Virus record (IMG/VR): IMGVR_UViG_3300050132_000142
Location: 1 to 51,860 of that record
Length of the DNA stretch: 51,860 bases
Strand: one strand, 5' to 3'
DNA from: a virus
Part shown: positions 9,401 through 38,061 of the stretch, in pieces
Layout of the letters: the number at the start of each line of letters is the position of its first letter
How positions within the stretch are numbered: the first letter of the stretch is position 1
Notes under the pieces: model-generated
Database searches by the model: none
Seen by the model: the letters and a program-made list of their open reading frames with translations, nothing else
Told to the model about the DNA's origin: nothing
Made by a program: the position numbers and the translations under genes

Positions 9401-9716
9401 GAGCTATGGTAATCGAGGATGGGGACACGTTGAGTGGATCAACCTTGCCTATCAATCAACGGCGGCGGTAACGCTGGTAATGACGATGGACAACGGAAGC
9501 GCGATCACTCTTACGTTTCCAAGTACGAGTGCATTGCAGGTCAAGCAGTTTATGACATTTCCACAAAACAAATTCAAGATTATCGGGTGGACGGCTAATT
9601 CGACACAACCTTTTTCGATCTCGGCTGAAGATTGCGAACTATTCTATTCTGGCTGGGGAACAAAATCAGGAGTAATACGACCATTTGAATCTGGATGGGG
9701 GTCGGTAACAACTTGA
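6465..9716 (+). CDS. Large virion structural protein (1083 aa), possibly a tail/nozzle or fibre component
   Basis: Longest ORF of the virion module, with a GTG start coupled to the upstream stop. Contains the GSGQTDGTYTI...GSGYTSVPTFP module. Confidence 0.6.
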   Translation: MEKGIRLDIAGGINTVSSPDQIEANGEGIPYAQNVRRNRKSMTVARYPLGSNLLSSPLSNGITSVARLNDPYQSPTPYSYLSGSNGSLYVGTSQVASGLSGKPLSFLPYRPPSSPRPFDYIADPSLAVTIPAYMASGYGPVSGMLKVRADGETYKTGIKEPQVAPNITTATGTGPNWVTYRYVYRDKNTGAVSNSSPESVPQIVPQSSSSASIGAGQYATNLIFDSSQYEYNNFDSRGDNIRTKGIAAGTLTNYIQAYGFGLSVPDGVTIDGIGISLSWCGQNSGTGVLSNVALFYQGTILGEAKSPGTLNQQTTTTANQGGGDDPWGATLTPAIVNDTTFGFGVQILTEESGGTDRSFMFTWTITVYYTTQSSTGTCTSSIDPQVNTIDVYRQTPGLDNFTYVLSVDNSSPSFTDTLSDLTIAENQTLNYNNYEPFPSIDLPRSGTCNVVAMNQKVTGIGISSPGSGQTDGTYTIPSSGGGGNGATVQIVISGGVISSSTPPIVLTPGSGYTSVPTFPVAHGGTPGTLLATIGPVSPGAVNVTWVSGDKFNIRWLPGTDILINGIAYLLYNRPTSDTQMEVYTTTTSATGFISFGYPPSATGATWQINEPDLAAEPSPVLWGPTPDSGGGSFMMGLDPLNPGDLLTSMGNNFDSAPSSQRLYICSPSEGLVNGIVTSELHVVFSPERFWLLYANSSDAVATVTGTTGPLWTPVQAASTRGLYMRYALAGMGSMIAWRAKDGVFVSQGGGPEQDISANIYNLFPHGEPEGPSTVVIGGQTIYPPDDTKPNAQTMACVPGYIFYDYQDTTGTPRTLVYDMEAKGWVVDSYMPTVNCHALATGVNQILCGCTDGTIRAFDALGTETGTAMMITRCEGKGSTRIVKRIGGVFLRAVAASAVTMAFWANRLQTAITGFSPSTAGTGAMENDYLVDFTSATNADVKDLACQFSWALGSGNILSEWQPDWTFLPAAVIGWKTGLLSYGNRGWGHVEWINLAYQSTAAVTLVMTMDNGSAITLTFPSTSALQVKQFMTFPQNKFKIIGWTANSTQPFSISAEDCELFYSGWGTKSGVIRPFESGWGSVTT

Positions 9717-10696
9717 GTCAACCAGCAATCACATACGCAGCCCCAACGGTAGAGACAAGCGTCCCTTTTGAGATAAGGAGGCATCTCCAGCTTATCTACC
9801 AAAAGCTGGGGAATCATACTCAGGCGTTTTCTCTTCAACAGGAAAAAATTGAATCCCTAAAATCAGGTACTTCATCAACCACTGAAGTAGAAACTGTCAA
9901 TGCGGTTAGTGGAGGAACGGGATCAGTAATCGGCTCCGTAAACAACCAGAGCGGGGTGGTTTCTTACTCCATAGTCTCTGGAGATTATGGAGCAGTAATA
10001 GTCCTATCTGATTCTTCCCCAGTATCCGTAACGCTGAATCCTCAGACTCCTCCATGGTTCTGCTGGATTTCAAATCTTGGTGCTGGGTCGATAGCCCTTA
10101 CTCCGTCTTCAGGGTCCATCAATGGAGTTTCTTCATTGGTGGTATTGCCTACATATTGCACTCTAGTAGCTTTCGATGGAACTAACTGGTGGGCGATGAC
10201 GCTTCCTATTGTTCCAGTAAACACTCCGTCAGTGTCCCATGAATGGTTGGTATCGTATAACGCAACAACTGGAGCGTTTTTGGCATCGCAGCCAGCGTTC
10301 ACAGATATATCTGGAACAGCTTCTCCATCTCAAATCGGTACTGGAACACCTTCATCTGGAAAGTATGTTGATGGAGGAACTGATGCGTGGACGACACTTC
10401 CTATAGTAACGTCGTATCACTCTGTTGTAGGGACGTCTTATTTATCTACGTTATCCGACCGGATTATTGGGGTAAATTATTCTGCTCCAGTGGCGATTAC
10501 ACTCGTTAACGCGGCAAGTGTGCCAATAGGCACTGTAGTGATAGTGAAGGATGAGAGCGGAAATGCTGGGACGAACAATATCACCATAACCCCTCAATCA
10601 GGACAAAATATTGAAGGGGTTAGCAATCAGGTTATCGATAGTGATTACGATCTAAGGAGGATGTACTCTAACGGATCAAATTGGTTACTTGTGTAG
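9695..10696 (+). CDS. Tail-fibre-like protein (333 aa) with two related C-terminal beta domains
   Basis: Internal duplication ...ISNLGAGSIALTPSSGSING...FDGTNWW and ...NAGTNNITITPQSGQNIEG...YSNGSNWLL, a pattern typical of fibre tips. Confidence 0.55.
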   Translation: MGVGNNLSQPAITYAAPTVETSVPFEIRRHLQLIYQKLGNHTQAFSLQQEKIESLKSGTSSTTEVETVNAVSGGTGSVIGSVNNQSGVVSYSIVSGDYGAVIVLSDSSPVSVTLNPQTPPWFCWISNLGAGSIALTPSSGSINGVSSLVVLPTYCTLVAFDGTNWWAMTLPIVPVNTPSVSHEWLVSYNATTGAFLASQPAFTDISGTASPSQIGTGTPSSGKYVDGGTDAWTTLPIVTSYHSVVGTSYLSTLSDRIIGVNYSAPVAITLVNAASVPIGTVVIVKDESGNAGTNNITITPQSGQNIEGVSNQVIDSDYDLRRMYSNGSNWLLV

Positions 10697-10730
10697 AGCG
10701 ATTTGCTGTAGAATGTAATGGAGGTGTGCG

Positions 10731-11303
10731 ATGTTTGGTTTAGGCATGGGACCGAGTTCTGGTGAAATTGGAGCAACAAATGCTCTTACGGGAGAGTCTG
10801 GATTTTCTGGAGCGGTTGGAGAGGGGCTATTGTCAAACTCTTCTTCGATTCTCAATGCCTTGTTGAGCGGGAACCAGTCCGAGATTTCCAAGCTGCTTGC
10901 ACCACAGATTTCCGCTGTTTCAAAACAGGCCAATGAGAAGACGCAGACCAATGCTCAGTTTGGGAATCGTTCTGGTGGAACCAATGCTTCTAATCAGAAC
11001 ACGATGGACACCGCTCGTTCAAGCGTGAACGACATGATTTCTCAGTTGACTAGCGGAGCAATTGGACAGGCTTCGAATCTTGGGAGCAACCTGCTTAGTC
11101 AGAGCATGAATGGATACAATAGCGTATTCAGCCAAAACCAAAGCGAACAGCAGGAGAGACTAGCACAATTGAATGACATCATCAACAGCAGTGCGGCGGT
11201 TGCAAGTATGGGCGTTGGAGCGGCTGGTGGAGTAGCGGCTACTCCTGCCGGTACTAGCACAGGTGGCCAATGGCTCGCTGGATTGCAGGGGGCTGGATTC
11301 TAG
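10731..11303 (+). CDS. Hypothetical Gly/Ser/Asn/Gln-rich virion (internal?) protein (190 aa)
   Basis: SD ggagg upstream. Low-complexity composition, virion-module position. Confidence 0.6.
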   Translation: MFGLGMGPSSGEIGATNALTGESGFSGAVGEGLLSNSSSILNALLSGNQSEISKLLAPQISAVSKQANEKTQTNAQFGNRSGGTNASNQNTMDTARSSVNDMISQLTSGAIGQASNLGSNLLSQSMNGYNSVFSQNQSEQQERLAQLNDIINSSAAVASMGVGAAGGVAATPAGTSTGGQWLAGLQGAGF

Positions 11304-11450
11304 TCAAGTACCGCTAGCTAAAGCAGGCGGCTTGCAACTAAATCATGCGAAACCTTGCACAACTCGTCGCGTTTGGCTGCTTGACATGCAGCCCTGCCGC
11401 GTTCCCTAAGGTTGACGGCAGCGTTAATGTCCGCGTTGGCTCTATACCCG
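11304..11450 (-). ncRNA. Predicted omega (right-end) RNA scaffold overlapping the tnpB 3' end. Boundaries not determined.
   Basis: Family rule: the omega RNA derives from the tnpB 3' end plus the right end. Only 14 nt separate the tnpB stop from the neighbouring gene. Local hairpin GGCTGC-ATGTCAA-GCAGCC at about 11378-11396. The non-conserved C-terminal tail suggests ORF/RNA overlap. Confidence 0.3.
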
Positions 11451-12451
11451 CAAGAGCGGCACACGAAAACCGATTGAGAGAGGCGATTGGCTTTTTCAGT
11501 ATGACCACATTGAGAGCATTCACGGCTGGAGTTCCTTGGGTCCACAAGAATCAATTGGACTCCAGCAGTGATGCACTTGTATGTGATGAACTGTTTCAGT
11601 TGGTCAAACGCCCAGGAATGCAGGACGGTACGCTGCGGGAGCCTAGCCTTGATTCGTTCCCTGATGCCCTTGAGTTCTTCAAGCACCACGGCACGATTCG
11701 TGCATTTAGCTTTCGTAACGACCTGCTTGGAAATGCAGTGATTCACGTCTTTTGCGAAGCGGGCTTCGCGCCCAGATTGCTTTTTGAGAAGACGCTTGCA
11801 GCTATGCGTTCCCTTCTTTTGCAACTTTGCTCTCAGGTGACGATGACGGTAGCGAATTCCTTTCACTTGAGAGCCGCTGAAACTTTGTCCGTCAGAGTCG
11901 GAAAGAATCTCTGTTATACCAAGATCGCAGCCGAGGGAGTCATCAGGTGGATTAGGTTCTGGAACGTCATTGCGAAGAACGAGGTTAACGTAAAGCTCTT
12001 TGGATTGACGGTCAAGGCAAAGAGCACCGGCAGTAGGCTTCTGTCCTTTCAAAAGGCTGCGTTGATAGTTCCCGATTGCCAACTTGACTTTGATGCGTCC
12101 ATTAACGGTAGACAGGCTGACAGACTCGGACTTCTCAAGAAAGCGAAGCAAGTCCTTGTCAAGGTCCGCGCTGGTTGGTCCAAAGTAGGTTGGAGTCTGT
12201 TTCCCTTTACCGAAACTGGCAGCGACGCGGGCAATTGCACGAACGGCATAGTTGCTGGTCAGCCCGTATTGTTCTTTAATTTGGTAGTAGCAGATCTTGT
12301 GCAGAGCAAACTGAGCACGAATATTTTCTTTGTTGGAAACCGCAAGAACGTCATTGCATGCAGCGGCAAACCTTTCCAACGTCAAGAGCAAAGAACTCCT
12401 CTGTTCTTCCGTTGGTTGGAGCTTGCATCGCACTGTCTTTACGGATTCCAT
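11318..12451 (-). CDS. tnpB: TnpB (OrfB) RNA-guided RuvC nuclease, 377 aa, apparently intact
   Basis: RuvC-I is LGCDLGITEI. RuvC-II is AVVLEELKGI. Zinc finger is CSQCGHTEKANRLSQSVFVCRSCGYRANADINAAVNL, carrying RuvC-III ADINAA. The N-terminus RCKLQPTEEQ is typical of the family. Confidence 0.85.
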   Translation of the reverse strand: MESVKTVRCKLQPTEEQRSSLLLTLERFAAACNDVLAVSNKENIRAQFALHKICYYQIKEQYGLTSNYAVRAIARVAASFGKGKQTPTYFGPTSADLDKDLLRFLEKSESVSLSTVNGRIKVKLAIGNYQRSLLKGQKPTAGALCLDRQSKELYVNLVLRNDVPEPNPPDDSLGCDLGITEILSDSDGQSFSGSQVKGIRYRHRHLRAKLQKKGTHSCKRLLKKQSGREARFAKDVNHCISKQVVTKAKCTNRAVVLEELKGIRERIKARLPQRTVLHSWAFDQLKQFITYKCITAGVQLILVDPRNSSRECSQCGHTEKANRLSQSVFVCRSCGYRANADINAAVNLRERGRAACQAAKRDELCKVSHDLVASRLL

Positions 12452-12544
12452 GAATTCATCCTACCACTAAACAGTTCAAACTTCAAGAAAGGACGATGCG
12501 ACTCCTCTGCCGCCTAAAGTCAGCGGTCCCCTCGCACAAAATCC

Positions 12545-14302
12545 ATGGCAGATATAGAAAATCCTCTTGTTAATCTTGCAAATAGAGCACATGCTCGTGA
12601 AGATACGAACATGCAGGCTATCCGAAAGAACGAACAAGACTCCCTCAATTTTCAGATGGCCCCCATTCTTCAGGCTATATCTTCCGACCAGAAACGCATT
12701 TCTCTTTTACCTGAAGATGACCCCAAACGAGAACAACTCCTGCAAAGCCTAGCTATGAATATCGGTAAGGTCCGGAATATGTATGGTGACAAGACTCCTG
12801 ACGATGAACCTGGGCGTATCTCGCAGACTGTCAATGCTCTTCGCCAGCATTTTAAACTTGGAGGGAAGTCCAAGGATCAACTGGAAGCGGCGCAGAAAGA
12901 AAAATCTGCCAAGTGGGGAGAAAAGAACAAGAAAATGGCGGGTGAGTATGCTGGAGCTATTCCCCCTAGCGATTACCAAGTAGAAATGGCCCAAGGAGCG
13001 GAACGAGGTGTTCCAGAAGACTTGCGCAAGAAGGCGGGTCAGACAAAGTGGCTTGAGTCGATGGGTGAAATTGCAAAGCCTGTTGCAGAGAAAGACCTGA
13101 ATAAGCCAGATGTGGTTTCTCTCACTCTAAAAGATGGAAGTGTTTTATCTGCTCAGTGGGCACCTGACGCAAGTCTTCCAACAAAGGGAAAGTGGAAGTA
13201 CCTGAATGGAACCGACATACCGGACACACTCCTTGGAGGAGCGGTTGTTACTCCAAAGTCTACTGGACCAAAGGTCGGGACATTTGGAGATTTCATGCTT
13301 GCAGCGTATGGCCAACATCCGACTGCTCAGCAGTATGTACAAGGTCGTCAGAAGTGGGCAGAGGCAGTAGCTGGTACTACTAGCGGTACACACATGGCAT
13401 TTGTTCCTCAAGCGGATTTTTCTATCAAGGCCATTTCTGTACAGACCACAAGTTCAAAGCATATCGGCGGTGGTGGCAGTAGTGGATTACCTACCAATAG
13501 AGCAGATGTAAATGTTCCTTCGCAAGTCCCTGATCCAGTAGAAGAAACCACTGCAACAGATGAACCCTATCCATCTGAACCAGCGCCATCTATTCCAGTG
13601 GACAAGTCAAATCTTATTCCCGCGTCGGAAGCAGCTAAAAGTATCCGTTTTGCTCCTAAGCCTGGATATCATCTCGTAACCCCAAGACACGACAAGACAT
13701 ATTTCTTGTGGCAGTCAGACACGGACCCTAATGATGTAGTTGAGGCTAGGGCTGGTGTGCCAAAATCTTCTGGGTCTATCAAAAAGGGGAGAGAACCTAA
13801 AGGACCAGTAAGAACAAGCATGGAAAATACCGCTAGAAAAGCACGGGGGGGTGATGGTGGTGGAGTGGCGAGTCCAGGTGCAACTGTTGGTGGGAAAAAG
13901 ACTCCTGCGCAGAGCAAAGCTGAAACAGAATACGCAGAAGCGATCAAGTTACAGAGTCTAGCAAACAGCGCAGTTGCATCTCCGAGTTCACAAAGAGATT
14001 TCCTCTTGGCCGATAATCTGTTGCATGGTGCTTTGGGCAGGGTAAACGAAGTAGAGATTAGAAAGATTTTCTCTGCCGGTGGATGGGGAGAAGCGCCGAG
14101 TAGATGGATGTCAAGAGCATCAAAGGGAGAGCTTAGCCCGAATCTCCGTAGGCAGTTGCAGGAGTATTCTAACGACCAAGTTAATGCAACCAAAGATGCG
14201 ATGAACGCTCTCGATGGGCTTACTTCGAAGCCTTCTGTCGGCGGTAGCAAGAAATCAAAGGGCGGTGGATTCAACTGGAACGAACACCCGGTGGCGCAAT
14301 AA
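12545..14302 (+). CDS. Large Lys/Glu/Pro-rich virion-module protein (585 aa), possibly an internal/ejection protein
   Basis: Long ORF, low-complexity charged composition, position after the fibre genes. Confidence 0.55.
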   Translation: MADIENPLVNLANRAHAREDTNMQAIRKNEQDSLNFQMAPILQAISSDQKRISLLPEDDPKREQLLQSLAMNIGKVRNMYGDKTPDDEPGRISQTVNALRQHFKLGGKSKDQLEAAQKEKSAKWGEKNKKMAGEYAGAIPPSDYQVEMAQGAERGVPEDLRKKAGQTKWLESMGEIAKPVAEKDLNKPDVVSLTLKDGSVLSAQWAPDASLPTKGKWKYLNGTDIPDTLLGGAVVTPKSTGPKVGTFGDFMLAAYGQHPTAQQYVQGRQKWAEAVAGTTSGTHMAFVPQADFSIKAISVQTTSSKHIGGGGSSGLPTNRADVNVPSQVPDPVEETTATDEPYPSEPAPSIPVDKSNLIPASEAAKSIRFAPKPGYHLVTPRHDKTYFLWQSDTDPNDVVEARAGVPKSSGSIKKGREPKGPVRTSMENTARKARGGDGGGVASPGATVGGKKTPAQSKAETEYAEAIKLQSLANSAVASPSSQRDFLLADNLLHGALGRVNEVEIRKIFSAGGWGEAPSRWMSRASKGELSPNLRRQLQEYSNDQVNATKDAMNALDGLTSKPSVGGSKKSKGGGFNWNEHPVAQ

Positions 14303-16425
14303 TGCCAACCTCTACTCTAATTCCGATGTTTGACCCTCAAGGCCAAGTCCGAATGATTCCAATGGATAAGGTGGACGAAGCTAAAAAATCTGGTGGGAAA
14401 GTAGCGCGTAAATTCCGTGATCCTAAAGGGACGGAAAGATGGATACCTGCTAAGCTTACTAATGAAGCTATAAAAGCAGGTGGAAGACCAGTACCAATAC
14501 ATATTGAAGAACAACCAAAGCTAGATGGCAGTCCAATAGGAAGATTCCTTTCTAGTGCTGGAAGTGCTATCGGAGGAGTAGTCAAGGGGTTCGATCCTCG
14601 TCCAACAGAAGAGGAAAAACAGCAAGGGCTAACCAGCGCCTATGATTATGCTTTGCGCCCAGCAGAAAGATTAGTTCAATCCCACATAGAGCAGGGAAAG
14701 CAAGCTGACAGAGAATTTAGACAAGCAGCTCCTACTTCACTTCATCCTACGCAACAGCAACGTGAACATCGTCAAAAAGCTCTGGCGCATGGGCTGGCAA
14801 CTGTTATTCCCGGTGTTGGACCATGGGCCGCTAATGTAGGAGAACAAGTTGGTACGCAAATTGGGACTGGGGATTATGCCGGGGCTGCTGGTACTCTTGC
14901 TGGTAATGCTACGGTTGCAGTCGCACCTAAAATCATTGGTAAAGCAACTCGTGGATTGATGAAAACGGCAGAGAGGGCAAGGGAAGCAGCAACTAAAACT
15001 AGACCACGAGAGACTGCGGAACTTGTCAAGAAGACTGAAACTGAGAATAAATCACTTTCTGAAAAAGCATCTAAAGCGAATGAAGAGCAAGAAGCACAGA
15101 GAAAAATAGACCTTCGCAAGCACTTTGAAAAAGTGAAAGAAATTGAACGAGCCAACGAAAAAGCTAAGTCACCGGCAGAGAGAAAGGCTGCACTAACTCG
15201 TGGAGTTGAAAAACTTGATACTGACTTTCAATCTGATCTGAAGAAGACCGCAGACAATGTTCGCAAGGAGGCGAGCGGGAAATACGATGCTGTACGTTCG
15301 GCGACACAAGGACAAACGGTCCCATCTGACCAGTTGGCATCAGCAGTGCGTGAAGCCGAGTCAAAGATTCAAGGGTCTAGCGAGAACCTGAAAATATTCA
15401 GGGATATTCTATCGAAGCACCCTGAAGAAGAGGGGGAGATTGAATATCAGGGGGCTAAAATACCCAAGGGTCATCCTCTCTACGATGTTCTCAAGGAGGG
15501 AATAGAGAGTCCAGATTCTACATTCTCTAATCTGCAAGGATACTACACAGAACTCGGAGACAAGTTCTCTACAGGTACTCTTCCTGGAGATGTGTATCAA
15601 GCCATGAAATCGTTGCATAAAAATATCGGAAACCTAATGCAACAGATGGCAGATAGAAGCGGAGTCGGACCTCAATTTTCTGAAGCAAGAAACTTTTATC
15701 GCCAATATATGCAGACGTTCCGTGACCACAATTCTCCGCTCTACAAGGCTATCAAGGCCACAGAGAGGGGTAAGTCTATCGCTTCTCTTAGCGGAAAGGA
15801 CCAAACTGGTATTCAGGCTCTTGCCCGGTATAATCCAGACCTTGCTCAGAGGGCAAACACAATTCGAGGGTATCAGTCAGAGGCGCGTTCAATCCCATCA
15901 AAGCCAAAGGATCTAAAATCTCTTCCGAAGTTAGAACCTAAACCTTCTCCGATCTCCCCTGGAGTGAAGAAGATAGGTACAGAGGATATTCAACAAGCAA
16001 AGCAAGAAGGAATGCAACAAAGAGCAGACTTCATCAAGAAGCGCGGTGGACAAATAGCTGTTACGTTTGGTGCGTATAGGATGCTCGAAAACGTGATTCA
16101 TGGAAACCTATCAGCACTGCCGGAAGACTTCGCTGGTGCGGTAGCTGGATATGGAATCACGCAGGCAATAGGTATGCTTCTTGAAAACAAGAAGATAATG
16201 GAAGCCTTTACGAAGCCAACTTTACGTGATCTTGATGAAATTCCTCCAGATATGCGTGGAGACATTAAGGAAATAGTTGAAGAGGCTCAGAGACAAGGAA
16301 TTAAAGTAGACCCCACGCTTAAAGCATTAGTTGGTGCAACAGCAGCAGGAGCAGCGCAAATTAAGGGACCAAAGCAAAAGGAACTGGAAGGAACCGCTGA
16401 ATACTACAGAAACAATCCGCGCTGA
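14302..16425 (+). CDS. Large charged virion-module protein (707 aa), possibly an internal/ejection protein
   Basis: TAATG coupling to the upstream gene. Contains a coiled-coil-like KE-rich centre. Confidence 0.55.
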   Translation: MPTSTLIPMFDPQGQVRMIPMDKVDEAKKSGGKVARKFRDPKGTERWIPAKLTNEAIKAGGRPVPIHIEEQPKLDGSPIGRFLSSAGSAIGGVVKGFDPRPTEEEKQQGLTSAYDYALRPAERLVQSHIEQGKQADREFRQAAPTSLHPTQQQREHRQKALAHGLATVIPGVGPWAANVGEQVGTQIGTGDYAGAAGTLAGNATVAVAPKIIGKATRGLMKTAERAREAATKTRPRETAELVKKTETENKSLSEKASKANEEQEAQRKIDLRKHFEKVKEIERANEKAKSPAERKAALTRGVEKLDTDFQSDLKKTADNVRKEASGKYDAVRSATQGQTVPSDQLASAVREAESKIQGSSENLKIFRDILSKHPEEEGEIEYQGAKIPKGHPLYDVLKEGIESPDSTFSNLQGYYTELGDKFSTGTLPGDVYQAMKSLHKNIGNLMQQMADRSGVGPQFSEARNFYRQYMQTFRDHNSPLYKAIKATERGKSIASLSGKDQTGIQALARYNPDLAQRANTIRGYQSEARSIPSKPKDLKSLPKLEPKPSPISPGVKKIGTEDIQQAKQEGMQQRADFIKKRGGQIAVTFGAYRMLENVIHGNLSALPEDFAGAVAGYGITQAIGMLLENKKIMEAFTKPTLRDLDEIPPDMRGDIKEIVEEAQRQGIKVDPTLKALVGATAAGAAQIKGPKQKELEGTAEYYRNNPR

Positions 16426-17311
16426 TGATTTTTGCCGTCGTAGAGCATGGCTATCCTTGCGCTGGAGTGTTCCATTCCTGAACCCAAAAGAAGTCTTGTA
16501 TCGCGCTGTCGAGTACGGACTCATGTCAGACTCAGAAGACCCCGGAGAAGCGGCTGAGGCTCATGCGATGGACTTGGCAGTGGACCCCGGAATAGACACA
16601 TCAGAAACCGATATGCTTGGCTTGGCGGCGCACGTATCTAGCCTTGCCAACTTCATTACATGGATACTTAGGGGCGATAGCGGCACGTGGAAGCGTCCAG
16701 AACCTATCAGACTACCCAACGGTACACTATGGAATTCCGGTGCGTTCCTTGGGGCGCAGGAGCGTTCCTTGAGGCGTGTGGCACTGGTAGACCGATGGGA
16801 TGCATGGACTCAGACGGCCATGGATCACGCTTGGAACACTATGGGTGAGTGCTCTGTATACCAGACGGCCATGGACGTGATGGTGGTTGAGATTGGGTCA
16901 TTGCGAAAAGGAAGATGGTCAAACCCGTTCACTATCGGCTACCGTCACCCCGTCGCCAAGGTGCTTAGGTTCCGCAAGCGGGATGGTGACGACTTCGGTT
17001 CTACTTGGGACCGTGTAGAACGGGAGCACGACTCGGCAACTCGTGAGCAATGGTTAGACGCACTGACCGATGATGGAGTGCTGGCTGAATCAATCCACGT
17101 CCATCATGTTGATGTGCCGGAGAACTCAGATGCGATTCTTGCACTAACAGAGAAAAAAATACTGAGGATTGAAGAGACTGTTACGCCTCCAGACCCTCAG
17201 TATTCTCAATGCTTCCAGAAGATCAATCCTTGCCCATTTCGTTCGTGCTGCCCTAGAGGAATTGATCCTTCACCGGAGATTGGATTCATCCCTACATCAT
17301 CGAACCAGTGA
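16331..17311 (+). CDS. Possible PD-(D/E)xK (Cas4/RecB-like) nuclease with a C-terminal Cys cluster. Start codon unresolved.
   Basis: N-terminal ...ADDFCRRRAWLSLRW and C-terminal QCFQKINPCPFRSCCPRG resemble Fe-S nuclease cysteines. The first in-frame ATG is only at 16523, and earlier candidates are TTG/GTG/CTG overlapping the upstream gene. Confidence 0.35.
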   Translation: MVQQQQEQRKLRDQSKRNWKEPLNTTETIRADDFCRRRAWLSLRWSVPFLNPKEVLYRAVEYGLMSDSEDPGEAAEAHAMDLAVDPGIDTSETDMLGLAAHVSSLANFITWILRGDSGTWKRPEPIRLPNGTLWNSGAFLGAQERSLRRVALVDRWDAWTQTAMDHAWNTMGECSVYQTAMDVMVVEIGSLRKGRWSNPFTIGYRHPVAKVLRFRKRDGDDFGSTWDRVEREHDSATREQWLDALTDDGVLAESIHVHHVDVPENSDAILALTEKKILRIEETVTPPDPQYSQCFQKINPCPFRSCCPRGIDPSPEIGFIPTSSNQ

Positions 17312-17849
17312 GAGAGTTTGGATCATGGGAGGCAGTTGCTCTGCTTACCATGTCGTCCTGACCACCCTGATACTGCGGACGTTGAACGGGTGCCGGGTCT
17401 ACTGAAATCTGATCCATTGGAGGCAACTGTTGTGTCTGGCTGTATCCCGGCAAAGGAACAGAAGAAGGGAACTGCAAAGATACAGGACGGTTCTCAAGTT
17501 GAGCAATAAGGTTAATGCGATATTGCACTTCGGTTTCGATTCCTTTTAGGGATTCCTGTTCTGCCTGAAACTTGCTCTGTGCCATCAGGTATTCGGCATG
17601 AGAAGCAGTGAGTCTCTGACGAGCTGCGCTGCGTTGCCCAACAAGCTCAACAACCTGGGATTGCAGGGCGGTGACAGCGGGAGACGGAGCAACAGGTGCG
17701 GGTGGCTGGGCGGGAACCACGATAGGCTGTTCCGTCTCCTTTTTCTTTGCCCACCTCTCTTTCTGAGCATCGGCGATACGTTGTTTGACTTCTGGACTCA
17801 TAGTATGCTTCTTCTTAGTGGTAGTACTTGCCAAGTTTTCCATGTACAA
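17292..17849 (-). CDS. Hypothetical protein (185 aa), coiled-coil centre, Pro/Gln-rich
   Basis: Isolated minus-strand ORF containing MSPEVKQRIADAQKERWAKKK. Its 3' end overlaps the convergent gene by 20 nt. Confidence 0.55.
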   Translation of the reverse strand: MYMENLASTTTKKKHTMSPEVKQRIADAQKERWAKKKETEQPIVVPAQPPAPVAPSPAVTALQSQVVELVGQRSAARQRLTASHAEYLMAQSKFQAEQESLKGIETEVQYRINLIAQLENRPVSLQFPSSVPLPGYSQTQQLPPMDQISVDPAPVQRPQYQGGQDDMVSRATASHDPNSLTGSMM

Positions 17850-18000: not shown

Positions 18001-20046
18001 ATGATGAAGAAAATTCTTGGACTGCTGTTGTTTTTGTCATCGTATCCGGTGTTTTGCCAAACAGCAGCATTGCCAATATATTCTTGCGTGCAACAAGGAG
18101 TGAAAGCTAAAGTCTCCGGACTTAATTCGACAAATTACATGCAAGGAATTGTTCCAAGCTGCACAGTTAAAGTGTATCTAACCGGTACGCAGACAATCGC
18201 CACAACCACTCCTCAGAGTCCATTTACAGCCAATACCGATGGATCAATTCCTCCAATATATGCTGCTGTTAATCAAGTCTACGATGTTGTTCTGAGCGGT
18301 GGAATCTCACCCAACACCTATCCGTCTCCAGTTACGATATCTACGGGGAGCATCGGTGCCACGACTACCTATGCGCTGACCGCATCGGCTACTGGTGGCG
18401 CAGCCCCAGGGTCTACCTTTAACGGCAGCGCGGCAGTGACGTTCGATTACCATTCATTCGGAGCCGCGCCGCTTGCATCTCCCACCTTTACTGGAACCGT
18501 GACTATTCCTCAATCTTTAGTCGCTGGGTCGGTTAGTGGAAAGATAAGCGCCCCTGCAGGAACACATTTCATTTTTAAGGGCGATTCGCTGACATATGGG
18601 TATCTGCTGTCCAATCCTGATACTCAATCGTTTCCAGCACTTTTCGGTGGCTGCACACTCAGCGGTACCCCAGGAACCTGCACAACTTCGAACACCGCCG
18701 GAGGTCACTCATTTGTTGGGCCATCGGCAACAATCGTGAATCTGGGCATTACCGGAGAAACATTAGTGTCCATGCTCAGCAATTACGCGACAGAGGTTAG
18801 GCCGTATTGTCTGGCGGCGACCGCATCCGTGCCAGTATATCTCCATTTCGAGGCGGGGATCAATGACATTATGAATTCTGGACCATCAGCAGCAACAGTT
18901 TACTCAGGTCTGCAAACGTACTGGTCTGAGGCCAAGGCAGATGGTTGCACTGTGACGGCAACGACGCTGACCCCCGCAGGAAATTTATCTGCTTTGCAGG
19001 ATTCCACTCGGATCGCAGTAAATGAAGATATTCGTTCCAGTGTCGGGCTGTATTCATATCTCGACGACCTTGCATCGCTGCTGCCTGATCCGTCCGATGT
19101 GGTCTGGTATACATCCGACATGTTGCATTACCAACTGCCTGCCACGTCGAAAACCGCTGACTTTATCAACGCATTATGGACTGCACAGAACGGATTTCAG
19201 CCTGCGGAAATAATTCAGGGAGGGATCTTCTCTTCGCGCCTGGTCGTGAGCGACTATACAGTACAGCCATCGGACAGAATTCTCTATTCCGAATGCTCCA
19301 GTTGCACCGTCACCCTTGCTAACCCCACAACAACAGGTCAGGTTGTGGTGATTGAAAACTGGTCTGGTGGGGTGCTTACGGTAACATCCGTTGCCAACAA
19401 CCTTCCATTCACTAGGAGTCTTGCCCCACAAGAGTCACTCACTTTGTTGAGCTATGCTCCAGATACCTGGAACATAATCAAACAAACTCCGTATATCAAT
19501 CCTCCTGCAGTAACCAGTGTGGATCAGAATTTTTCCGCGACTTCGACCATTCCCAACTCTGGGAGTTTATCTCCGGGGTTCAATCTACTCAATGGGGCAG
19601 GTTATTCGTACGGATCAGCGTTAGCCAATTGGGCTGGAAGTTTCTATGTTGATAACTACATACCAAGCAATGGAGCGGGATGGCACTGGTGCGAGTACGC
19701 ATCAGGTACTCCGCTCGCTGCTACGTCGCAGGAAACCTACTGTCACACACTCAGTAACCCAACTGCAAATGACAGTTTTGTGATGTCTACCCAAATGCCT
19801 CTGACAGGGACCTCAAGCAGCATCGGCGGATCATCACTGGCAGCAGGAGCTTGTGCGAGTACAACTGTCAGCATAACCGGGGCAACGACTAGTAATGCGG
19901 TTGAGGCTACTCCAGCCACTTATCCCGGGGATGCCTATTACTGGAAGGGATACGTGAGTGCTACCGGGACGGTAACGGTAAAAGTTTGCGCGGCGGCGGC
20001 GGGAACTCCAACTGCCAGCACATACAGTGTGCGCGTGATCCAGTAG
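18001..20046 (+). CDS. SGNH/GDSL-family esterase domain protein with a signal-peptide-like N-terminus (681 aa); candidate polysaccharide-deacetylating spike or secreted enzyme
   Basis: N-terminus MMKKILGLLLFLSSYPVFCQT. Block I FKGDSLTYGY, block III GINDI, block V DMLHY. Flanking regions are beta-rich. Confidence 0.7.
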   Translation: MMKKILGLLLFLSSYPVFCQTAALPIYSCVQQGVKAKVSGLNSTNYMQGIVPSCTVKVYLTGTQTIATTTPQSPFTANTDGSIPPIYAAVNQVYDVVLSGGISPNTYPSPVTISTGSIGATTTYALTASATGGAAPGSTFNGSAAVTFDYHSFGAAPLASPTFTGTVTIPQSLVAGSVSGKISAPAGTHFIFKGDSLTYGYLLSNPDTQSFPALFGGCTLSGTPGTCTTSNTAGGHSFVGPSATIVNLGITGETLVSMLSNYATEVRPYCLAATASVPVYLHFEAGINDIMNSGPSAATVYSGLQTYWSEAKADGCTVTATTLTPAGNLSALQDSTRIAVNEDIRSSVGLYSYLDDLASLLPDPSDVVWYTSDMLHYQLPATSKTADFINALWTAQNGFQPAEIIQGGIFSSRLVVSDYTVQPSDRILYSECSSCTVTLANPTTTGQVVVIENWSGGVLTVTSVANNLPFTRSLAPQESLTLLSYAPDTWNIIKQTPYINPPAVTSVDQNFSATSTIPNSGSLSPGFNLLNGAGYSYGSALANWAGSFYVDNYIPSNGAGWHWCEYASGTPLAATSQETYCHTLSNPTANDSFVMSTQMPLTGTSSSIGGSSLAAGACASTTVSITGATTSNAVEATPATYPGDAYYWKGYVSATGTVTVKVCAAAAGTPTASTYSVRVIQ

Positions 20047-26888: not shown

Positions 26889-27070
26889 TGCAATACACAG
26901 AGCCAACTCACACAGTAGACCCGGAAGTAGCGCGGCTACATCTCGACTTGATCTCTTCTGGCGATCTGAGCATGGAAGAGTCAATGTCGAGGCTCTTCCC
27001 GGAAGAAGGACCGCAATATCTACGACCTAGGACGGTGGACGTGGGGACCACCATAAGGAGCGAACAATGA
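26888..27070 (+). CDS. Hypothetical protein (60 aa)
   Basis: TGATG coupling upstream and ATGA coupling downstream. Confidence 0.5.
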   Translation: MQYTEPTHTVDPEVARLHLDLISSGDLSMEESMSRLFPEEGPQYLRPRTVDVGTTIRSEQ

Positions 27071-27957
27071 AGCATAGCGACTCAATCGCAGAACTCGCAT
27101 CAGCACTAGCAGCAGCTCAGGCTGAATATGTTGCTGTTCCAAAGAACAAAACTGCACGGGTAAAGATGAAGTCGGGCGGAGAGTATTCGTACAAGTACGC
27201 AGACCTTGCAGACATTCTTTCGATGGCGCTACCTGTTCTGTCAAGGCAGGGTATAGCCTTCAGCCAACCTCACGTATTAGTGGACGGTAAGCTACGTGTA
27301 GTGAGCTATCTACTTCACAAATCTGGAGAATGGATACACTCGGACGGCATCGAAATATCAGAATTGGGAGAACCGCAGCAGATGGGGGCAGAGTCCACCT
27401 ACTTCCGCCGCTATGATGGCGCATCCCTTCTTGGAATCGCACCAGATGAAGACACAGATGCTCAAGATGCTGGTAAAAGAACACCGCGTCATACAAATCA
27501 GGTGCAAGAATCGCACTACGAAGCTCCGCAGGGAGAGATTTACACGAATCCTCCTGCCCAACCGGCCACGCAGCAGACAGCGCAAGCACCAGCACCATCC
27601 CAGGGGCAGGCAGGACAGCTTAAATTCTTGCCTCCCAATGGGATGATTGCAACCGTGAAGAGCGTCAAGGAAATCGAGGGAAGAGAAGCTTCTGAAGGTC
27701 ATCGGGCAATCAAACCATTCCTTGCAGTGGAGTGGCTTGGAACGCATAACGGGGTAAGTGGAGCATCGTGCTTTGACTCGAAGTATTGGCCCCTAATCAA
27801 GGCAAGTGTCGGGCTGGAATGCCATTTCCAAATCAAGGAAAAGGACTCTAACGGAAAGCACTACATCAACATCGAAGACGTGATTTATCGTGACGGACAG
27901 GAAGTAACTTATGTCGAGGGAGTGTTGAATCTCGACGGTCAACCAACACAGCTTTAA
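27067..27957 (+). CDS. erf: ERF-family single-strand annealing protein (296 aa)
   Basis: IAELASALAAAQAEYVAVPKNKTA...YSYKYADLADILSMALPVLSRQGIAFSQ matches the ERF N-terminal signature. Confidence 0.75.
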   Translation: MKHSDSIAELASALAAAQAEYVAVPKNKTARVKMKSGGEYSYKYADLADILSMALPVLSRQGIAFSQPHVLVDGKLRVVSYLLHKSGEWIHSDGIEISELGEPQQMGAESTYFRRYDGASLLGIAPDEDTDAQDAGKRTPRHTNQVQESHYEAPQGEIYTNPPAQPATQQTAQAPAPSQGQAGQLKFLPPNGMIATVKSVKEIEGREASEGHRAIKPFLAVEWLGTHNGVSGASCFDSKYWPLIKASVGLECHFQIKEKDSNGKHYINIEDVIYRDGQEVTYVEGVLNLDGQPTQL

Positions 27958-29895: not shown

Positions 29896-31530
29896 ATGAC
29901 TGGTACCCTATTTGAAACTAAATCACGAGCACTGTACCCTCTTCGTTGGTATCAAGAGCCATCAATACCAACCTTACGAGCCGCGCTCAAGGAAGGTAAT
30001 CTAAAGTCCGTTATACAGGCACCTTGCGGCTATGGGAAAACCTTGATAATGGCATACCTAGCATCTATGTCAATGAAAAAGGGTAATCGGGTGTTGGTTG
30101 CTACACCCAGAATTTCCCTTACCGACCAAACATATGAATCATTTGAGGAACAGGGTATTCGAGACATGGGAGTTCTGCAAGCCGATAATAGGCGTACTAA
30201 CCCTATGGCGCAATTGCAGATCGCCTGTTTTGATACTCTTTACAAGAGAGAGAAAGAACTACCAGATTTTGGTTTGGTACTCATTGATGAGGTCCACTTA
30301 GCAGATGCTCGAATGTGGGAACTCTTAAAACGCTGGAGGGTAGCTCTTTCTTTTACGGCTACTCCGTGGAGTAAGGGACTCGGTTTGCACTTCAGCAAGC
30401 TCATTGTGCTATCCACGATCAACGATATGCTTGAGTACCACAAGAAAGACCCGTCAGTCGGACTTGTGCCAATCAAAGGCATTGGCCCCAAGCCTGAATT
30501 CCTGCAACAGATTGAGCATCTAAAGACTGGACAGGACGGAGATATTCAGGAAGATGCAGCTCAACACTTCATGGATAAAACAGAAGTCGTTGCTGACATC
30601 GTTGATACTTGGATGCGCACCCGTCAAGAGGGAAATCATCCAGGCGATAGGACGTTTGTATTTGCGCGGAGAAGAATTACAGCAGTCCACTTCCAAGAGG
30701 CTTTTGCAGCGCGGGGAATCAAGTTCGACTATATCGACGCCTTCACTTCAGATCGAAGTCCCATATTTAAACGATTCCGCGCAAAGCAGACACAGGGGAT
30801 TGTCAGCGTTGGATGTCTATCGACGGGAGTAGATGAGGATGTTCGCTGCATCGTTGATGCCGCACCGCGCAAGAATCAGGCAGACATTGTACAGGCTCTT
30901 GGGCGTGGTATGCGACCGGCTGAAGGAAAAGAATTTTGCTACCTGTGCGATCACGTTGGCAATGCGAACCGTTTTGGATGGTTTGCAGACATCTATCATG
31001 ACAAGCTGGACACCACACCTCCGCACATCAAGGGAAGCGCCTACGAGCAAGAAGAGGCCACTCCTACCGAGGTCAAGCGCAAACAATGCGCTGTCTGCCG
31101 TGGATACTTGCCGCGCGGCGCGTTCAAGTGCCCCACCTGCGGCAACGTGATGGTGATAGACGACACTGTAACCATCGACGCGGAATTGGTAGACCTTCGC
31201 AAGATGAAGGCCGAGAAGAAGGTCAAGAGAGAATTAGCTGAAAAAGAGAAAGCAGCTAGAGCAGAGAAGAAAAAGCAGGGTGAGCCACAAGCGTTCTATT
31301 CTGGATTGATCGACTTTGCAGAGCGCCGAGGATTCAAGGACGGATGGGCATGGCACAAATACATTGAAAAATATGGGCAACCACCGACAGGATTGAACAA
31401 GGTTCCTATGACCCCGCGCAAGATGGTAAAGGATTTCATCAAGGAATCAGCAAGAAAGTGGCGACAGCAGCAGAAAGCCAACGCACCCAAACCAGCAGCA
31501 GAACCGAAAGTATATCGAGGAGAATTCTGA
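29896..31530 (+). CDS. SF2 DEAD/DEAH-box (DEVH) helicase with a C-terminal zinc ribbon (544 aa)
   Basis: Motif I APCGYGKT, motif II LIDEVH, motif VI QALGRGMR, zinc ribbon CAVCRGYLPRGAFKCPTCG. Confidence 0.8.
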   Translation: MTGTLFETKSRALYPLRWYQEPSIPTLRAALKEGNLKSVIQAPCGYGKTLIMAYLASMSMKKGNRVLVATPRISLTDQTYESFEEQGIRDMGVLQADNRRTNPMAQLQIACFDTLYKREKELPDFGLVLIDEVHLADARMWELLKRWRVALSFTATPWSKGLGLHFSKLIVLSTINDMLEYHKKDPSVGLVPIKGIGPKPEFLQQIEHLKTGQDGDIQEDAAQHFMDKTEVVADIVDTWMRTRQEGNHPGDRTFVFARRRITAVHFQEAFAARGIKFDYIDAFTSDRSPIFKRFRAKQTQGIVSVGCLSTGVDEDVRCIVDAAPRKNQADIVQALGRGMRPAEGKEFCYLCDHVGNANRFGWFADIYHDKLDTTPPHIKGSAYEQEEATPTEVKRKQCAVCRGYLPRGAFKCPTCGNVMVIDDTVTIDAELVDLRKMKAEKKVKRELAEKEKAARAEKKKQGEPQAFYSGLIDFAERRGFKDGWAWHKYIEKYGQPPTGLNKVPMTPRKMVKDFIKESARKWRQQQKANAPKPAAEPKVYRGEF

Positions 31531-34500
31531 TGAACGTTATAAACGGAGAGGAAGTAGAGATGTCGCCATTCGCTGTTATGGGAGCGGAGATGATCGACCC
31601 AATGGAATTTAGCTACGAGAGGTTTCTTGAAAGCAAACGGTTCACGCCGATTATATCCGGTTTGACTACCGTTCCTCCGCTGAATCCATCCATGTTTCCG
31701 CATCAGCGCGATGTGTGCTCCTGGGCGCTACGCCTTGGCCGAGCCGCGGCGTTTCTTGGAACCGGCATGGGGAAGACGCTCATTGAGGAAGAGTGGGCGC
31801 GCGTCGTGTCAGAGCATACAGGTATGCCGGTCCTGATTCTCGCGCCTCTGGCCGTGGCTTATCAGATGGTCACAGAGGGCACGAAGTTCGGCATCGAAGT
31901 GAAGTATTGCAAAGACTCGTCAACCATGGAAGATTCTCGCATCATCGTGACGAACTATGAGCGCATGGGAAACTTCGAGCCGTCTGACTTCGCGGGAGTG
32001 GTGCTTGATGAGTGTTTCGCAAAAGGCACTAAAATTGATACTCCTGGCGGTAAGAAGAATATTGAAGACATACGCGTAGGAGATGATATTCTTAACTGTG
32101 TAGGGATTGACACTGTTCAAGACATACACAGGAGAGAGGTTCCTTATGCCGCGTTGGTCAAAATCGGTGGTACCAGTTTTATTGCCTCCCCAAATCATCC
32201 CACCTTCACACAGCGTGGATGGGTTGGGGCACAGCATCTGCGCCCAGGTGATTACGCACTGGGAACAGGAGCGGCAGTGTCTTTGGTGCGGGATTCGGTT
32301 TGCTCCAAAGTATCCCGCTCAGTTCGGCCAGAGGTTTTGCGGGACATCCTGCTCAGCGAAATGGCGGATGAGCCAACCGGAGCAACTTGCGAAGGTTCAC
32401 AATCCAACGGTGGCGGCGAAGCGAGGAGCGAAAAGGTCTGCATGGTTGGCGTCGGGAACTCCGCAAGCGATAGCGGAACTCAAGCGCATAACCGAGTTGA
32501 ATCCTACCAAATCAGCGGCTACGCGGCTCAAGATTTCCATCCGATTGAGAGCCATGAAGCACAAACCTTCCGTACCTGGCGGGAATGGTCGGGGGATGAC
32601 TATCGCGCAGTCGATGATGATGGATGCTCTTGGCTCAGAATGGATAGCGGAATATGCCGTGTCTCTGGGTCCACGAAAAGTAGGCTATCCATCGCACTAC
32701 AAACTCGATTGCGGGAATCCGAGGCTGAAATTAGGAATAGAGGTGGATGGAGTCTCGCACAACATGGAATCCCGCAAACTGGAGGACAGAAAGAAGGAGT
32801 CCATGCTGAGTTCGTTAGGGTGGACAGTGTTGAGATTCTGGAACAAGGAGATAGTCGATTGGAGCAACTCAGGGATGCGGACGGGAAGCTCTATTTCTAC
32901 GATCTTGGCGCAACACGGCATCCAAGTTACTCCGTCGCGGGCTGCTTAGTTCACAATTCCAGCATCCTGAAGTCTTTCGATGGAGCGACTCGATCCGCAC
33001 TCATTGAAGCGTTCAAGGATACGCCGTACCGGCTCGCTGCGACTGCCACACCCGCTCCGAACGATCACATGGAGCTAGGCAACCATGCGGAGTTTCTGGG
33101 AGTCATGACGGCTACTGAGATGCTTTCCATGTTCTTTACGCACGACGGCGGAGAGACACAGAAGTGGAGGCTTAAGGGCCACGCACGGGCAGAGTTCTGG
33201 AAGTGGGTTTGCTCGTGGGCTGTCAACATCCGCAAGCCTTCAGATGTAGGGTATGACGACGGTCCATTTATCCTTCCCGGACTGGTCTACCATGAACACA
33301 TCGTGGACGTAGACACGCCGAGCGAAGGGATGTTGTTCGCTATGCCTGCCGAGACGCTGGGAGAACGACTGGCGGCGAGACGGTCAACTGTCGATGATCG
33401 GGTGGCTGAGGTCAAGGCCATCGTGGAAGACGAACCAGCCGCGACTTGGCTTATCTGGACGAATCTCAACCGGGAGAGCGAAGCGGTAACTAAGGCGATT
33501 GGGAGCGTGGAGTTAACTGGCTCAGACACGCCAGAAGTGAAGGCTACTCGGTCACTGGAGTTTGCACAAGGAAAGATCAAGCGCATGGTTTCCAAGGCTT
33601 CCATCTTGGGTTTCGGTGTGAACTATCAGGTTTGTTCACACATGATCTTCGCTGGAGTGAACGATTCATGGGAGGGATTTTTTCAGGCAGTTCGACGTTG
33701 CTGGAGATTTGGTCAGGATGAACCCGTCCACGTTCACATCATTGCAGCATCCACAGAAGGAAACGTCCTCGAAAATCTGAAGCGTAAAGAAAGGGAGTCA
33801 GAGCAAATGGCAGAAGAGATGCAGGAAAACATGCAGGACTTGACGCGCATGAATCTGGTAGGCACCGTGCGCAGCGAATCGACATACGAGCGCGAAGTGA
33901 AGACTTCCGAAAACTGGACAATGCACCTTGCTGACTGTGTTGATCTTGCGCGGGAACTTCCCGATGATTCGATCCACTATTCGGTCTACTCTCCTCCGTT
34001 CGCTTCGCTCTACACATACAGCAATTCGGAGCGGGACTTGGGAAACAGCAAAGACCATGACGAGTTCTGGAAGCACTACCGTTTCCTCATCAAAGAGCAG
34101 TACCGCGCACTGATGCCAGGGCGTCTCGTGTCCATCCACTGTATGAACCTTCCCACGTCAAAGGTCCGGGATGGTCACATCGGCCTACGGGACTTCCGTG
34201 GCGAGATCATCCGCGCATTTGAAGAAGTTGGATTCATATATCATTCCGAGGTCTGCATCTGGAAAGATCCAGTGACTGCCATGCAGCGCACCAAGGCACT
34301 CGGGTTGCTCCACAAGCAGATTCGCAAGGACTCGACCATGAGCCGACAGGGCGTTCCTGACTATCTTGTTACCATGCGCAAACCGGGGGAGAATCCCGAA
34401 CGATGCGCACACACTTCCGAGCAGTTTCCTGTTCAGTTGTGGCAGCAGTATGCCAGCCCGATTTGGATGGACATAAACCCATCGGACACACTGCAATATC

Positions 34501-37461: not shown

Positions 37462-38061
37462 TTAAAGTTCGTAGTTCTCGGCCTCTATTTTTGTCAGGGA
37501 AAAGTGGATTCCATGGGAGCAAACATTCCAACGATCCTCATCAAACGAGTCTGCCTTTACGGTTTCTCCCTTCCTATAGATTACCGTTTCGTCGTTTGAT
37601 GAGATTCCCTCGTCTTCTCCAAGAACATCCAATACAACCACATGATCTGCGCGGCATTTGCGCGTTGCTCCATGGCTACGTTTTGCATCGGAGGGAATTA
37701 GCAAATGCACAACTACCTTATTTCTACAAATTTTCCACCCTTCAAATGATCCTGTTTCCGGGATAAATTGAATTTGGGCCAATGCCTTTTCAGAATTTTT
37801 GGCATCGCTCAGGTCGGCACCGCGCAGGTCGGCACCGCGCAGGTCGGCATCGCTCAGGTCGGCACCGCTCAGGTCGGCATCGCGCAGGTCGGCATCGCTC
37901 AGGTCGGCACCGCTCAGGTCGGCACCGCGCAGGTCGGCACCGCGCAGGTCGGCACCGCGCAGGGATTTTTTAGCTGCAATAGCAGCTACTACCAAATTCG
38001 ATAGTGTCTTTGCACTTTCTAGTGCAAAAATTACATTTCCAAAAATGTTCTTGATTTCCAT
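37462..38061 (-). CDS. Pentapeptide-repeat protein with a DUF5758-like C-terminal domain (199 aa)
   Basis: ATG 38061 with ggagg upstream. Repeat tract [55 protein letters not shown]-terminus ...[27 protein letters not shown]...[17 protein letters not shown]. Confidence 0.85.
37801..37965. repeat. Eleven tandem 15-bp units GGCAYCGCKCAGGTC (coding repeat of the pentapeptide gene)
   Basis: Counted in sequence. Variation occurs at only two positions per unit. Confidence 0.95.

Follow-up and report, generated by a model that had tools for sequence, protein, structure and literature searches.

How can a gene for an RNA-guided nuclease persist inside a tightly packed phage operon when no transposase accompanies it? 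The question is raised by a tnpB gene in IMG/VR virus record IMGVR_UViG_3300050132_000142, the complete 51,860-bp genome of an uncultured peat phage (49.7% GC, 127-nt terminal repeat), which was analysed over its whole length and is called the window here. The gene lies on the minus strand between two plus-strand phage genes. We find that it very probably belongs to an intact, transposase-less IS1341-type element of the IS200/IS605 group, which would have entered a TAATG stop/start overlap just 3′ of a CCAT motif, antisense to both neighbouring genes. The element itself is an ordinary but well-preserved unit of TnpB and omega RNA. It provides a compact nuclease whose scaffold is defined and, as a candidate motif, CCAT/TCAT, all from a clade that is still unexplored. 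The unusual part is that this clade, across phages and bacteria, removes stop codons from the strand opposite tnpB without conserving the antisense protein. Coordinates are collected in Table 1, in which WIN denotes the window copy and L-numbers denote loci of its relatives.

The minus-strand open reading frame (ORF) at 11318–12451 reads as an intact TnpB, as the preliminary description of this DNA had proposed from four motifs, all of which are present (GCDLGI, VLEELK, CSQC..CRSC and NADINAAVN). Profile searches agree with this assignment: NCBIfam NF040570 (guided_TnpB; cut-off 100) matches residues 8–350 of 377 with 173.6 bits, Pfam PF07282 (Cas12f1-like_TNB) gives 79.6 bits (cut-off 26.3), phrog_506 matches with an E-value of 3e-45, and PF01385 stays under its cut-off (24.7 against 30.5 bits). 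An alignment with 24 relatives shows no variation in the catalytic residues D176, E258 and D341 or in the cysteines C312, C315, C331 and C334, and the closest solved structures are those of TnpB and Cas12f proteins. In comparisons with relatives that are 78–86% identical to the window TnpB in protein, substitutions are by far most frequent at third positions of the minus-strand codons and least frequent at second positions (51, 21 and 172 at positions 1, 2 and 3 between the window and L007), a pattern that points to ordinary purifying selection on tnpB. Two other identities were tried and rejected. A TldR, a nuclease-dead TnpB-like repressor, does not fit intact catalytic residues and the presence of both transposon ends, and a Cas12f, the type V-F CRISPR effector, does not fit a score of 124 bits with NF049972 (cut-off 450) and a repeat scan of the genome that found no CRISPR array.

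Where does the element begin and end? Homology at the DNA level to L095, a locus with unrelated flanks, spans 12550 to 11301, and alignments of the flanks of WIN, L095, L002, L005/L006 and L007 diverge past ..TTGAC and ahead of GGATTTTG. These alignments yield a conserved right end (RE) that closes with ..GCGGTACTTGAC and a conserved left end (LE) that opens with GGATTTTGTGCGAGG; the RE tip ..GTTGAC is kept across the clade. Together, the stop of homology in L095 and the flank alignments place the element at 11303–12544, each end being uncertain by one base. The earlier proposal that it fits between the stop at 11303 and the ATG at 12545, thus at 11304–12544, agrees with the relatives within that one base, and the distance of 14 nt given between the tnpB stop and the stop of the neighbouring gene is correct. 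Both ends contain similar hairpins (CCGC..TTTAG..GCGG), the left one starting 18 nt inside the left tip and the GCGG arm of the right one ending 8 nt short of the right tip. The LE hairpin (CCGC-N9-GCGG, 12510–12526) shows compensatory changes among close relatives. Terminal inverted repeats and a duplicated flank are absent. Subterminal hairpins at such distances from the tips are the geometry of IS200/IS605 elements, as in IS608.

The LE also includes a conserved promoter-like pair on the minus strand, TTGAAG-N17-TAGGAT at 12458–12486, the second half of which has the form TA(n3)T in all close relatives. TGG stands directly before this −10 element, and TTGAAG and TGGTA are invariant in close relatives. 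We infer a promoter here from this conservation; a simple promoter scan listed nothing within the element, the TTGAAG/TAGGAT pair included. The tnpB ATG follows 6–7 nt past the −10 element (6 nt in the window), and this short distance suggests a leaderless tnpB mRNA.

The tetramer that adjoins the LE is CCAT in WIN, L095 and L002, CCAC in L007 and L006, and TCAC in L005. In addition, TCAT precedes the LE in six of six Latescibacterota copies of a related element, each at a different chromosomal site, and across the relatives TCAT or, more broadly, YCAY stands ahead of the LE at many independent sites. With moderate confidence we read from these flanks a target of the form YCAY, which would double as the transposon-associated motif (TAM) recognized by the nuclease; for the window copy, the exact motif CCAT is a prediction.

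An omega RNA had been expected to overlap the 3′ coding region of tnpB, and the comparison of relatives bears this out. From about 11430 to the RE tip all codon positions are conserved in seven close relatives, unlike the sequence further upstream. RNAalifold on these seven sequences returns four helices and a closing stem, among them the hairpin GGCTGC-N7-GCAGCC, which the preliminary description had singled out and which is confirmed by covariation in relatives (helix 5). A covariance model, R1, was built from the seven close relatives; its sole match in the window is 11303–11442 on the minus strand, with 160 bits, and it matches in full length at the tnpB 3′ end of most relatives searched, whose proteins are 40–49% identical. 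Over 42 base pairs, 91.7% of alignment cells are paired, against 33–42% with slid partners; changes on both sides occur in 40 of these pairs, and the covariation score is 0.486, against at most 0.066 in the controls. The alignment was fitted to the model and thereby flatters the structure, with a large margin over the slid controls. The window sequence alone folds modestly better than its shuffles (z = −2.07). Covariation thus strongly supports the predicted scaffold, and the tail of tnpB, previously called non-conserved, turns out to be conserved as RNA, in its nucleotide sequence.

Directly 3′ of the RE follows the predicted guide template, TAGAATCCAGCCCCCT, for which a length of 16 nt is assumed from ISDra2. 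It runs antisense to the final codons of gene 10731–11303, in line with the earlier expectation of a guide directed at the 3′ end of this gene. The sequence occurs exactly once in the genome, and there it adjoins TTGAC and not CCAT, so that the resident copy should be immune.

What did the site look like before insertion? The final base of the RE serves as the G in the TAG stop of gene 10731–11303. Deletion of 11303–12544 in silico creates ..GGA TTC TAATG GCA GAT.., in which a TAA stop overlaps the next ATG by one base (the predicted element-free junction is ..GGATTCTAATGGCAGA..), and this TAATG has the appearance of a typical coupled stop/start junction. Many genes of the phage have a GGAG-type Shine–Dalgarno (SD) sequence and gene 12545 has none, which fits a gene that was first translated by coupling. 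Insertion at this point disrupts no gene. Of the earlier view of a recent IS200/IS605-type (IS1341-like) insertion, the type and the lack of disruption therefore stand, and the recency gains no support, the closest relative having only 86% DNA identity.

Some results weigh against mobility and homing of the element. For the Y1 transposase TnpA (PF01797), already reported as missing, a search of the complete genome at E ≤ 1 gave nothing, and a second copy of the element was not found there either. Comparison of related loci defined the ends and a YCAY motif and did not extend to an empty site: an exact search of IMG/VR for the predicted empty-site 20-mer found none, and in the one DNA sequencing run found to contain the phage, which may be its source sample, no contig joins across the element; no RNA run with the phage is listed. 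The TAM of the close group rests on few independent sites, and the scaffold matched by our own covariance model belongs to no Rfam family, since a search over 10500–13200 at E ≤ 10 gave matches at chance level only. A serine recombinase (PF00239) has no match in the whole genome. Lacking a TnpA, the element is filed as tnpB-only (IS1341-type) and would depend on TnpA supplied in trans.

The absence of TnpA, of a second copy and of an empty site would also suit an immobile element, that is, a fixed and domesticated TnpB that acts as a weapon against co-infecting relatives without the element or has another function for the phage. Losses at the LE in two sets of relatives point the same way: L002–L004 contain the same copy in three samples with a deletion of about 45 nt that removes the LE hairpin, and L096 has no recognisable LE at all. 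We nevertheless regard domestication as quite unlikely, because the window copy has lost neither hairpin and still has the conserved RE tip as well as the motif adjoining the LE, and because relatives at 78–90% identity occupy different sites in unrelated phages. Moreover, the roles of a weapon and of selfish retention are not mutually exclusive.

The spread of these relatives is informative in itself. The protein database contains seven clusters at 78–90% identity to the window TnpB, with nothing between these and 54%, and the relatives at 78–90% are found in at least four unrelated phage contexts (Table 1). The arrangement in L002, where an 81%-identical tnpB lies antisense at 9927–11133, recurs in L003 and L004, that is, in three samples, and the RE tip of L002 is the last base of the TGA of the SLT gene. 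Among cultured phages, Rhodothermus phage RM378 (43% identity) and Thermus phage MN1 (36%) are nearest by TnpB; otherwise the clade is known from metagenomes only. The peat sequencing run itself contains more of this family. Its Logan assembly breaks inside tnpB, at 11504–11533, due to another tnpB relative (at window 11504–11554) on a contig of 1,746 nt at depth 6, with which the window gene has a 31-mer in common. The run also contains a second, diverged copy of the LE (equivalent to window 12487–12541) in a different flank that reads like TCAT. The element family thus seems to be multi-copy in that community.

For ISDra2 and other IS605 elements, cutting of the element-free joint followed by repair from the occupied copy has been described (PMC8612924; review PMC13565253). 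By analogy with this published mechanism, the window TnpB, loaded with an omega RNA that takes the 16 nt following the RE as its guide, would cleave alleles that read CCAT followed by TAGAATCCAGCCCCCT, which is the sequence of the element-free junction. Repair would then restore the element at this junction, or copy it to a relative that infects the same cell, whereas movement to new sites would require TnpA in trans. The Erf-like single-strand annealing protein (SSAP) encoded at 27067–27957 gives the phage a recombination function of its own, which is relevant to such break-and-copy spread, and it could aid the repair step. We consider it rather likely that nuclease and guide are active.

Why, then, is the strand opposite tnpB free of stops? 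A 390-codon ORF, missed by the preliminary description, is located on the operon strand in codon-aligned antisense to tnpB and runs from inside the RE into the loop of the LE hairpin. In this aligned frame, stops correspond to the tnpB sense codons TTA, CTA and TCA. The tnpB gene contains one TTA, in its tail, and neither CTA nor TCA among about 72 leucine and serine codons, compared with 5, 10 and 15 per thousand for TTA, CTA and TCA in the other genes of the phage; given the protein sequence and the codon usage of the phage, the chance of such depletion is about 3e-7. In the other phage genes, open stretches of the aligned antisense frame do not exceed 144 codons.

The open frame is a property of the clade. 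It spans 353–391 codons in all close relatives except one; third positions differ at 46–53% of codons among them. The exception is L096, in which tnpB starts 28 nt past the upstream gene and the antisense frame is broken by one CTA and three TCA codons. Fifty-seven of 74 non-redundant viral loci have 0–3 antisense stops where their flanking ORFs predict 2–24, and 11 have about the expected number. In bacterial and archaeal genomes the frame is open at 28 of 49 loci, GC-poor ones included (L108/L114, at a GC content of 0.39, have 2 stops where 13–30 are expected). In total, 85 of 123 related TnpB genes (about 70%) are open, viral and bacterial ones together having 0–3 stops where the flanks lead one to expect 4–30. 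Stop counts are distributed bimodally, being either 0–3 or close to the expected number, and open genes have 0.9 stops in the aligned frame compared with 11–19 in each of the four other alternative frames. On a tree of the 123 proteins the closed lineages are scattered among the open ones, which takes at least 9–12 changes, and the Thermoplasmatota outgroup is closed. At eight viral loci (L026, L056, L028, L057, L039, L077, L081 and L084) the antisense frame continues for 400–1,800 nt past the element, to 500–990 codons, and this could represent in-frame continuity with a host gene.

The product of the frame behaves differently. Antisense proteins are 44–53% identical where the TnpB proteins are 75–86% identical, and 17–27% where these are 40–49% identical. 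Site-wise codon conservation over permutation is +0.034 in open and +0.030 in closed lineages, AlphaFold2 with a 40-row alignment returns a predicted local distance difference test score (pLDDT) of 39 and a predicted template modelling score (pTM) of 0.21, and the antisense product matches no Pfam family. As the product is neither conserved nor predicted to fold, selection seems to act on the openness of the frame, that is, on the absence of stops, and not on what it encodes.

What could an open frame without a conserved product be good for? In the window, its first ATG follows two in-frame stops inside the RE and lies 41 nt past the stop of the upstream gene, its TAA stop in the LE hairpin loop is 27 nt before the downstream ATG, and neither the antisense ORF nor gene 12545 has an SD sequence at its start. 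In the clade, the frame mostly opens within 70 nt of the RE tip (with a stop inside the RE at 39 of 48 loci) and reaches 60–130 nt beyond the start of tnpB, so that it enters or crosses the LE. In L002–L004 it ends in TGATG, in which the TGA overlaps the ATG of the next tail gene (Dit-like), and at eight further viral loci it ends in ATGA or TGATG, the ATG of which opens a host ORF of 111–930 codons. Of the open elements, 25 lie antisense to the genes on both sides and 8 lie in sense orientation to both. In the reading that we prefer, ribosomes on the host operon mRNA would start anew on the antisense frame and carry translation over the element, which would shield the transcript from polarity and bring ribosomes to the downstream start. 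The TCAT/CCAT motif, being the complement of ATGA/ATGG, would at the same time steer surviving insertions to gene starts. As an explanation of the open frame, such read-across by ribosomes is tentative, possible rather than probable. The broader proposal, that this TnpB clade evolved a reverse frame open from RE to LE together with a motif complementary to start codons and can hence sit harmlessly antisense in operon overlaps, is likewise less likely than not.

Several points stand against read-across translation. The antisense ORF lacks an SD sequence, and its first ATG is not conserved, appearing as late as codon 238 and being absent altogether at one locus. The frame ends on a TAM-derived TGA at 23 of 57 loci (about 40%), close to the one-third expected from random phase, and for this reason we do not count these RTGA endings as support. 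The contrast in orientation between open and closed elements is marginal (Fisher p 0.05–0.08), and the frame is also open in the sense-oriented relatives L007–L012 and, in mixed orientation, in bacterial chromosomes. The Latescibacterota copies were tried as further cases of frames ending on a TAM-derived TGA and rejected, as their frames end in the LE hairpin loop instead.

Other explanations of the frame have to be set against these weaknesses. One is a functional protein made from the antisense ORF (‘TnpB_rev’), for instance a regulator or partner of TnpB, that tolerates changes in its sequence. A preprint on a cyanophage (10.64898/2026.02.14.705889) reports transcription of both strands of such a locus and an N-terminal peptide of the 347-aa reverse product in two public proteomes; the reverse ORF of that phage, A-1(L), is codon-aligned with tnpB in KU234533, and in the window's clade the depletion of stops is under selection. 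The low identity of the antisense products given above, the near saturation of tnpB third positions, the equal codon conservation of open and closed lineages, the poor predicted fold, and the lack of a Pfam family and of a conserved start codon make a protein unlikely nonetheless. Alternatively, the open frame could be a by-product without function, which might stem, for instance, from the codon choice of former hosts or from steering clear of three codons that are rarely decoded. Of the alternative frames, the aligned antisense one is kept open most easily; a GC-rich composition (GC at third codon positions 0.6–0.85), in which TTA, CTA and TCA are scarce in any case, is found in many of the open relatives, and closed lineages tend to be AT-rich. 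However, the frame is also open at a GC content of 0.39–0.50, where flanks predict 10–30 stops (WIN, L007, L019, L025, L049 and L108/L114), other codons ending in A or T are used freely (16 CTT and 9 TCT in the window tnpB), and stop counts are bimodal. Since synonymous sites are saturated, an inherited codon bias would moreover have decayed, and we judge a mere by-product to be improbable. It is hardly credible, finally, that the plus-strand ORF is a real phage gene and the TnpB frame a shadow or fossil, even though the former suits the operon in its strand and in its spacing to both neighbours: the minus frame has the strong profile matches and substitutions follow its codon positions, while the plus frame has no family and no fold and diverges fast.

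If read-across translation is true, it would explain how solo tnpB genes survive inside tightly packed phage operons, and it would represent a new way for a transposon to limit harm to its host, comparable to self-splicing but based on translation. Recoding tnpB with synonymous codons for genome editing could then destroy a natural function.

Table 1. Features of the window and of related tnpB loci. Positions refer to the window, except for L096, where they refer to that locus.
Feature	Position	Strand	Description
Whole tnpB-only element, IS200/IS605-type	11303–12544	−	1,242 bp; its top strand is the window minus strand
tnpB	11318–12451	−	377 aa; intact RuvC D176/E258/D341; CxxC..CxxC zinc finger
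Left end (LE)	12452–12544	−	93 nt; hairpin and promoter-like pair; from alignment of close relatives
RE subterminal hairpin	11310–11331	−	GCCGCC..TTTAG..AGCGGT; equals omega-RNA helix 9
Predicted omega-RNA scaffold	11303–11442	−	140 nt; four helices and closing stem; overlaps last ~125 nt of tnpB and the RE
Predicted guide template	11287–11302	−	16 nt; directly 3′ of the conserved RE end
CCAT adjoining LE, predicted TAM/TnpA target	12545–12548	−	complement ATGG holds the start codon of gene 12545–14302
Antisense ORF	11345–12517	+	390 codons, ATG start; codon-aligned antisense to tnpB; from inside RE to LE hairpin loop; operon strand
Upstream phage gene	10731–11303	+	190 aa; no Pfam or PHROG family; last base of TAG stop is RE tip
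Downstream phage gene	12545–14302	+	585 aa; viral hypothetical; no SD; ATG abuts LE
Minus-strand ORF	17292–17849	−	185 codons; fills gap between plus-strand genes 16331–17311 and 18001–20046
GDSL-lipase-domain protein	18001–20046
Erf-like SSAP	27067–27957		phrog_2324, E 5e-32
Helicase	29896–31530
Helicase-methylase ORF	31458–34784		Hint/intein signals
Terminase large subunit	42876–45038		weak match
L002–L004			tnpB between Dit-like gene and SLT-domain tail gene of an E217/PhiTE-like myovirus
L005/L006			tnpB between unrelated genes of two related 40–53-kb phages
L007–L012			tnpB in early-gene region, same strand as neighbours
L095			tnpB adjoining a gene of no known family
L096	452–1657		80%-identical tnpB in sense orientation; no recognisable LE

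What kind of phage carries the element? A blastn search of 9500–14500 against 50,697 phage records gave zero matches, and the phage appears to be far from any catalogued one. Searches of Pfam, PHROG and the Atlas found no function for either phage gene flanking tnpB, the 585-aa protein of the downstream gene resembles clusters of viral hypothetical proteins only, and a search of IMG/VR for relatives of this protein found none. Identity look-ups of both neighbours led back to the same phage only, in one peat run. The preliminary description had placed tnpB in a virion operon, a label that is plausible from position and strand; a weak terminase match lies further along, at 42876–45038, but the direct neighbours have no Pfam or PHROG family. 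It had also taken tnpB for the sole minus-strand gene in more than 25 kb of plus-strand genes, which it probably is not, as the 185-codon minus-strand ORF at 17292–17849 lies in the same stretch; this ORF is called as a gene in the independent Logan assembly and has no Pfam family.

The helicase/DNA-methylase ORF has matches to the Hint_2 and Vint domains at residues 186–257, indicative of an intein, and with this intein and tnpB the phage would carry at least two selfish elements. At 37771–37993, 11 tandem copies of a 15-nt unit lie within a minus-strand ORF that looks like a pentapeptide-repeat protein.

How does the element compare with known systems? With elements of the ISDra2/IS608 type (Karvelis 2021, PMC8612924; Meers 2023; structures 8exa and 8h1j) it shares a nuclease with the RuvC D-E-D triad and a zinc finger, a guide RNA that extends across the tnpB 3′ end and the RE and takes its guide from the flank, subterminal hairpins in place of inverted repeats, insertion 3′ of a short motif that doubles as TAM, and, as a prediction for the window, activity against the element-free joint. 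It differs in that tnpA is absent from element and genome, in its motif (YCAY/TCAT instead of TTGAT or TTAC), and in its location in the operon of a virulent-looking phage with the opposite strand free of stops; by sequence, its protein is only distantly related to ISDra2 TnpB (E 4e-5). Solo tnpB elements of the IS1341 group are likewise known from phages, such as ISH12 in the Halobacterium phages phiH and ChaoS9 and the ‘transposase’ genes of RM378 and MN1, yet none of these is close to the window's clade.

The nearest parallel to the open antisense frame is TnpB_rev of the Anabaena cyanophage A-1(L) and of Anabaena PCC 7120, a full-length reverse ORF that is codon-aligned with tnpB as well. 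The preprint treats this 347-aa ORF as lineage-specific and proposes a function for its protein (10.64898/2026.02.14.705889); beyond this single case, we found nothing in the TnpB literature on an antisense ORF opposite tnpB. The A-1(L) TnpB is about 28% identical to the window TnpB over the C-terminal half, and in contrast to a lineage-specific ORF, the frame in the window's clade is open in a majority of relatives and under no amino-acid constraint. Finally, phage homing endonucleases (T4 Seg/Mob), self-splicing introns and inteins are also selfish nuclease genes lodged within conserved phage genes or between them. During co-infection they spread by cleavage of alleles that lack them, and they have ways to spare the host gene. 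In the window element, however, the target would be read by RNA and not by protein, and harm to the host, which introns and inteins avoid by splicing, may be avoided by insertion into a stop/start overlap and by translation across the element.

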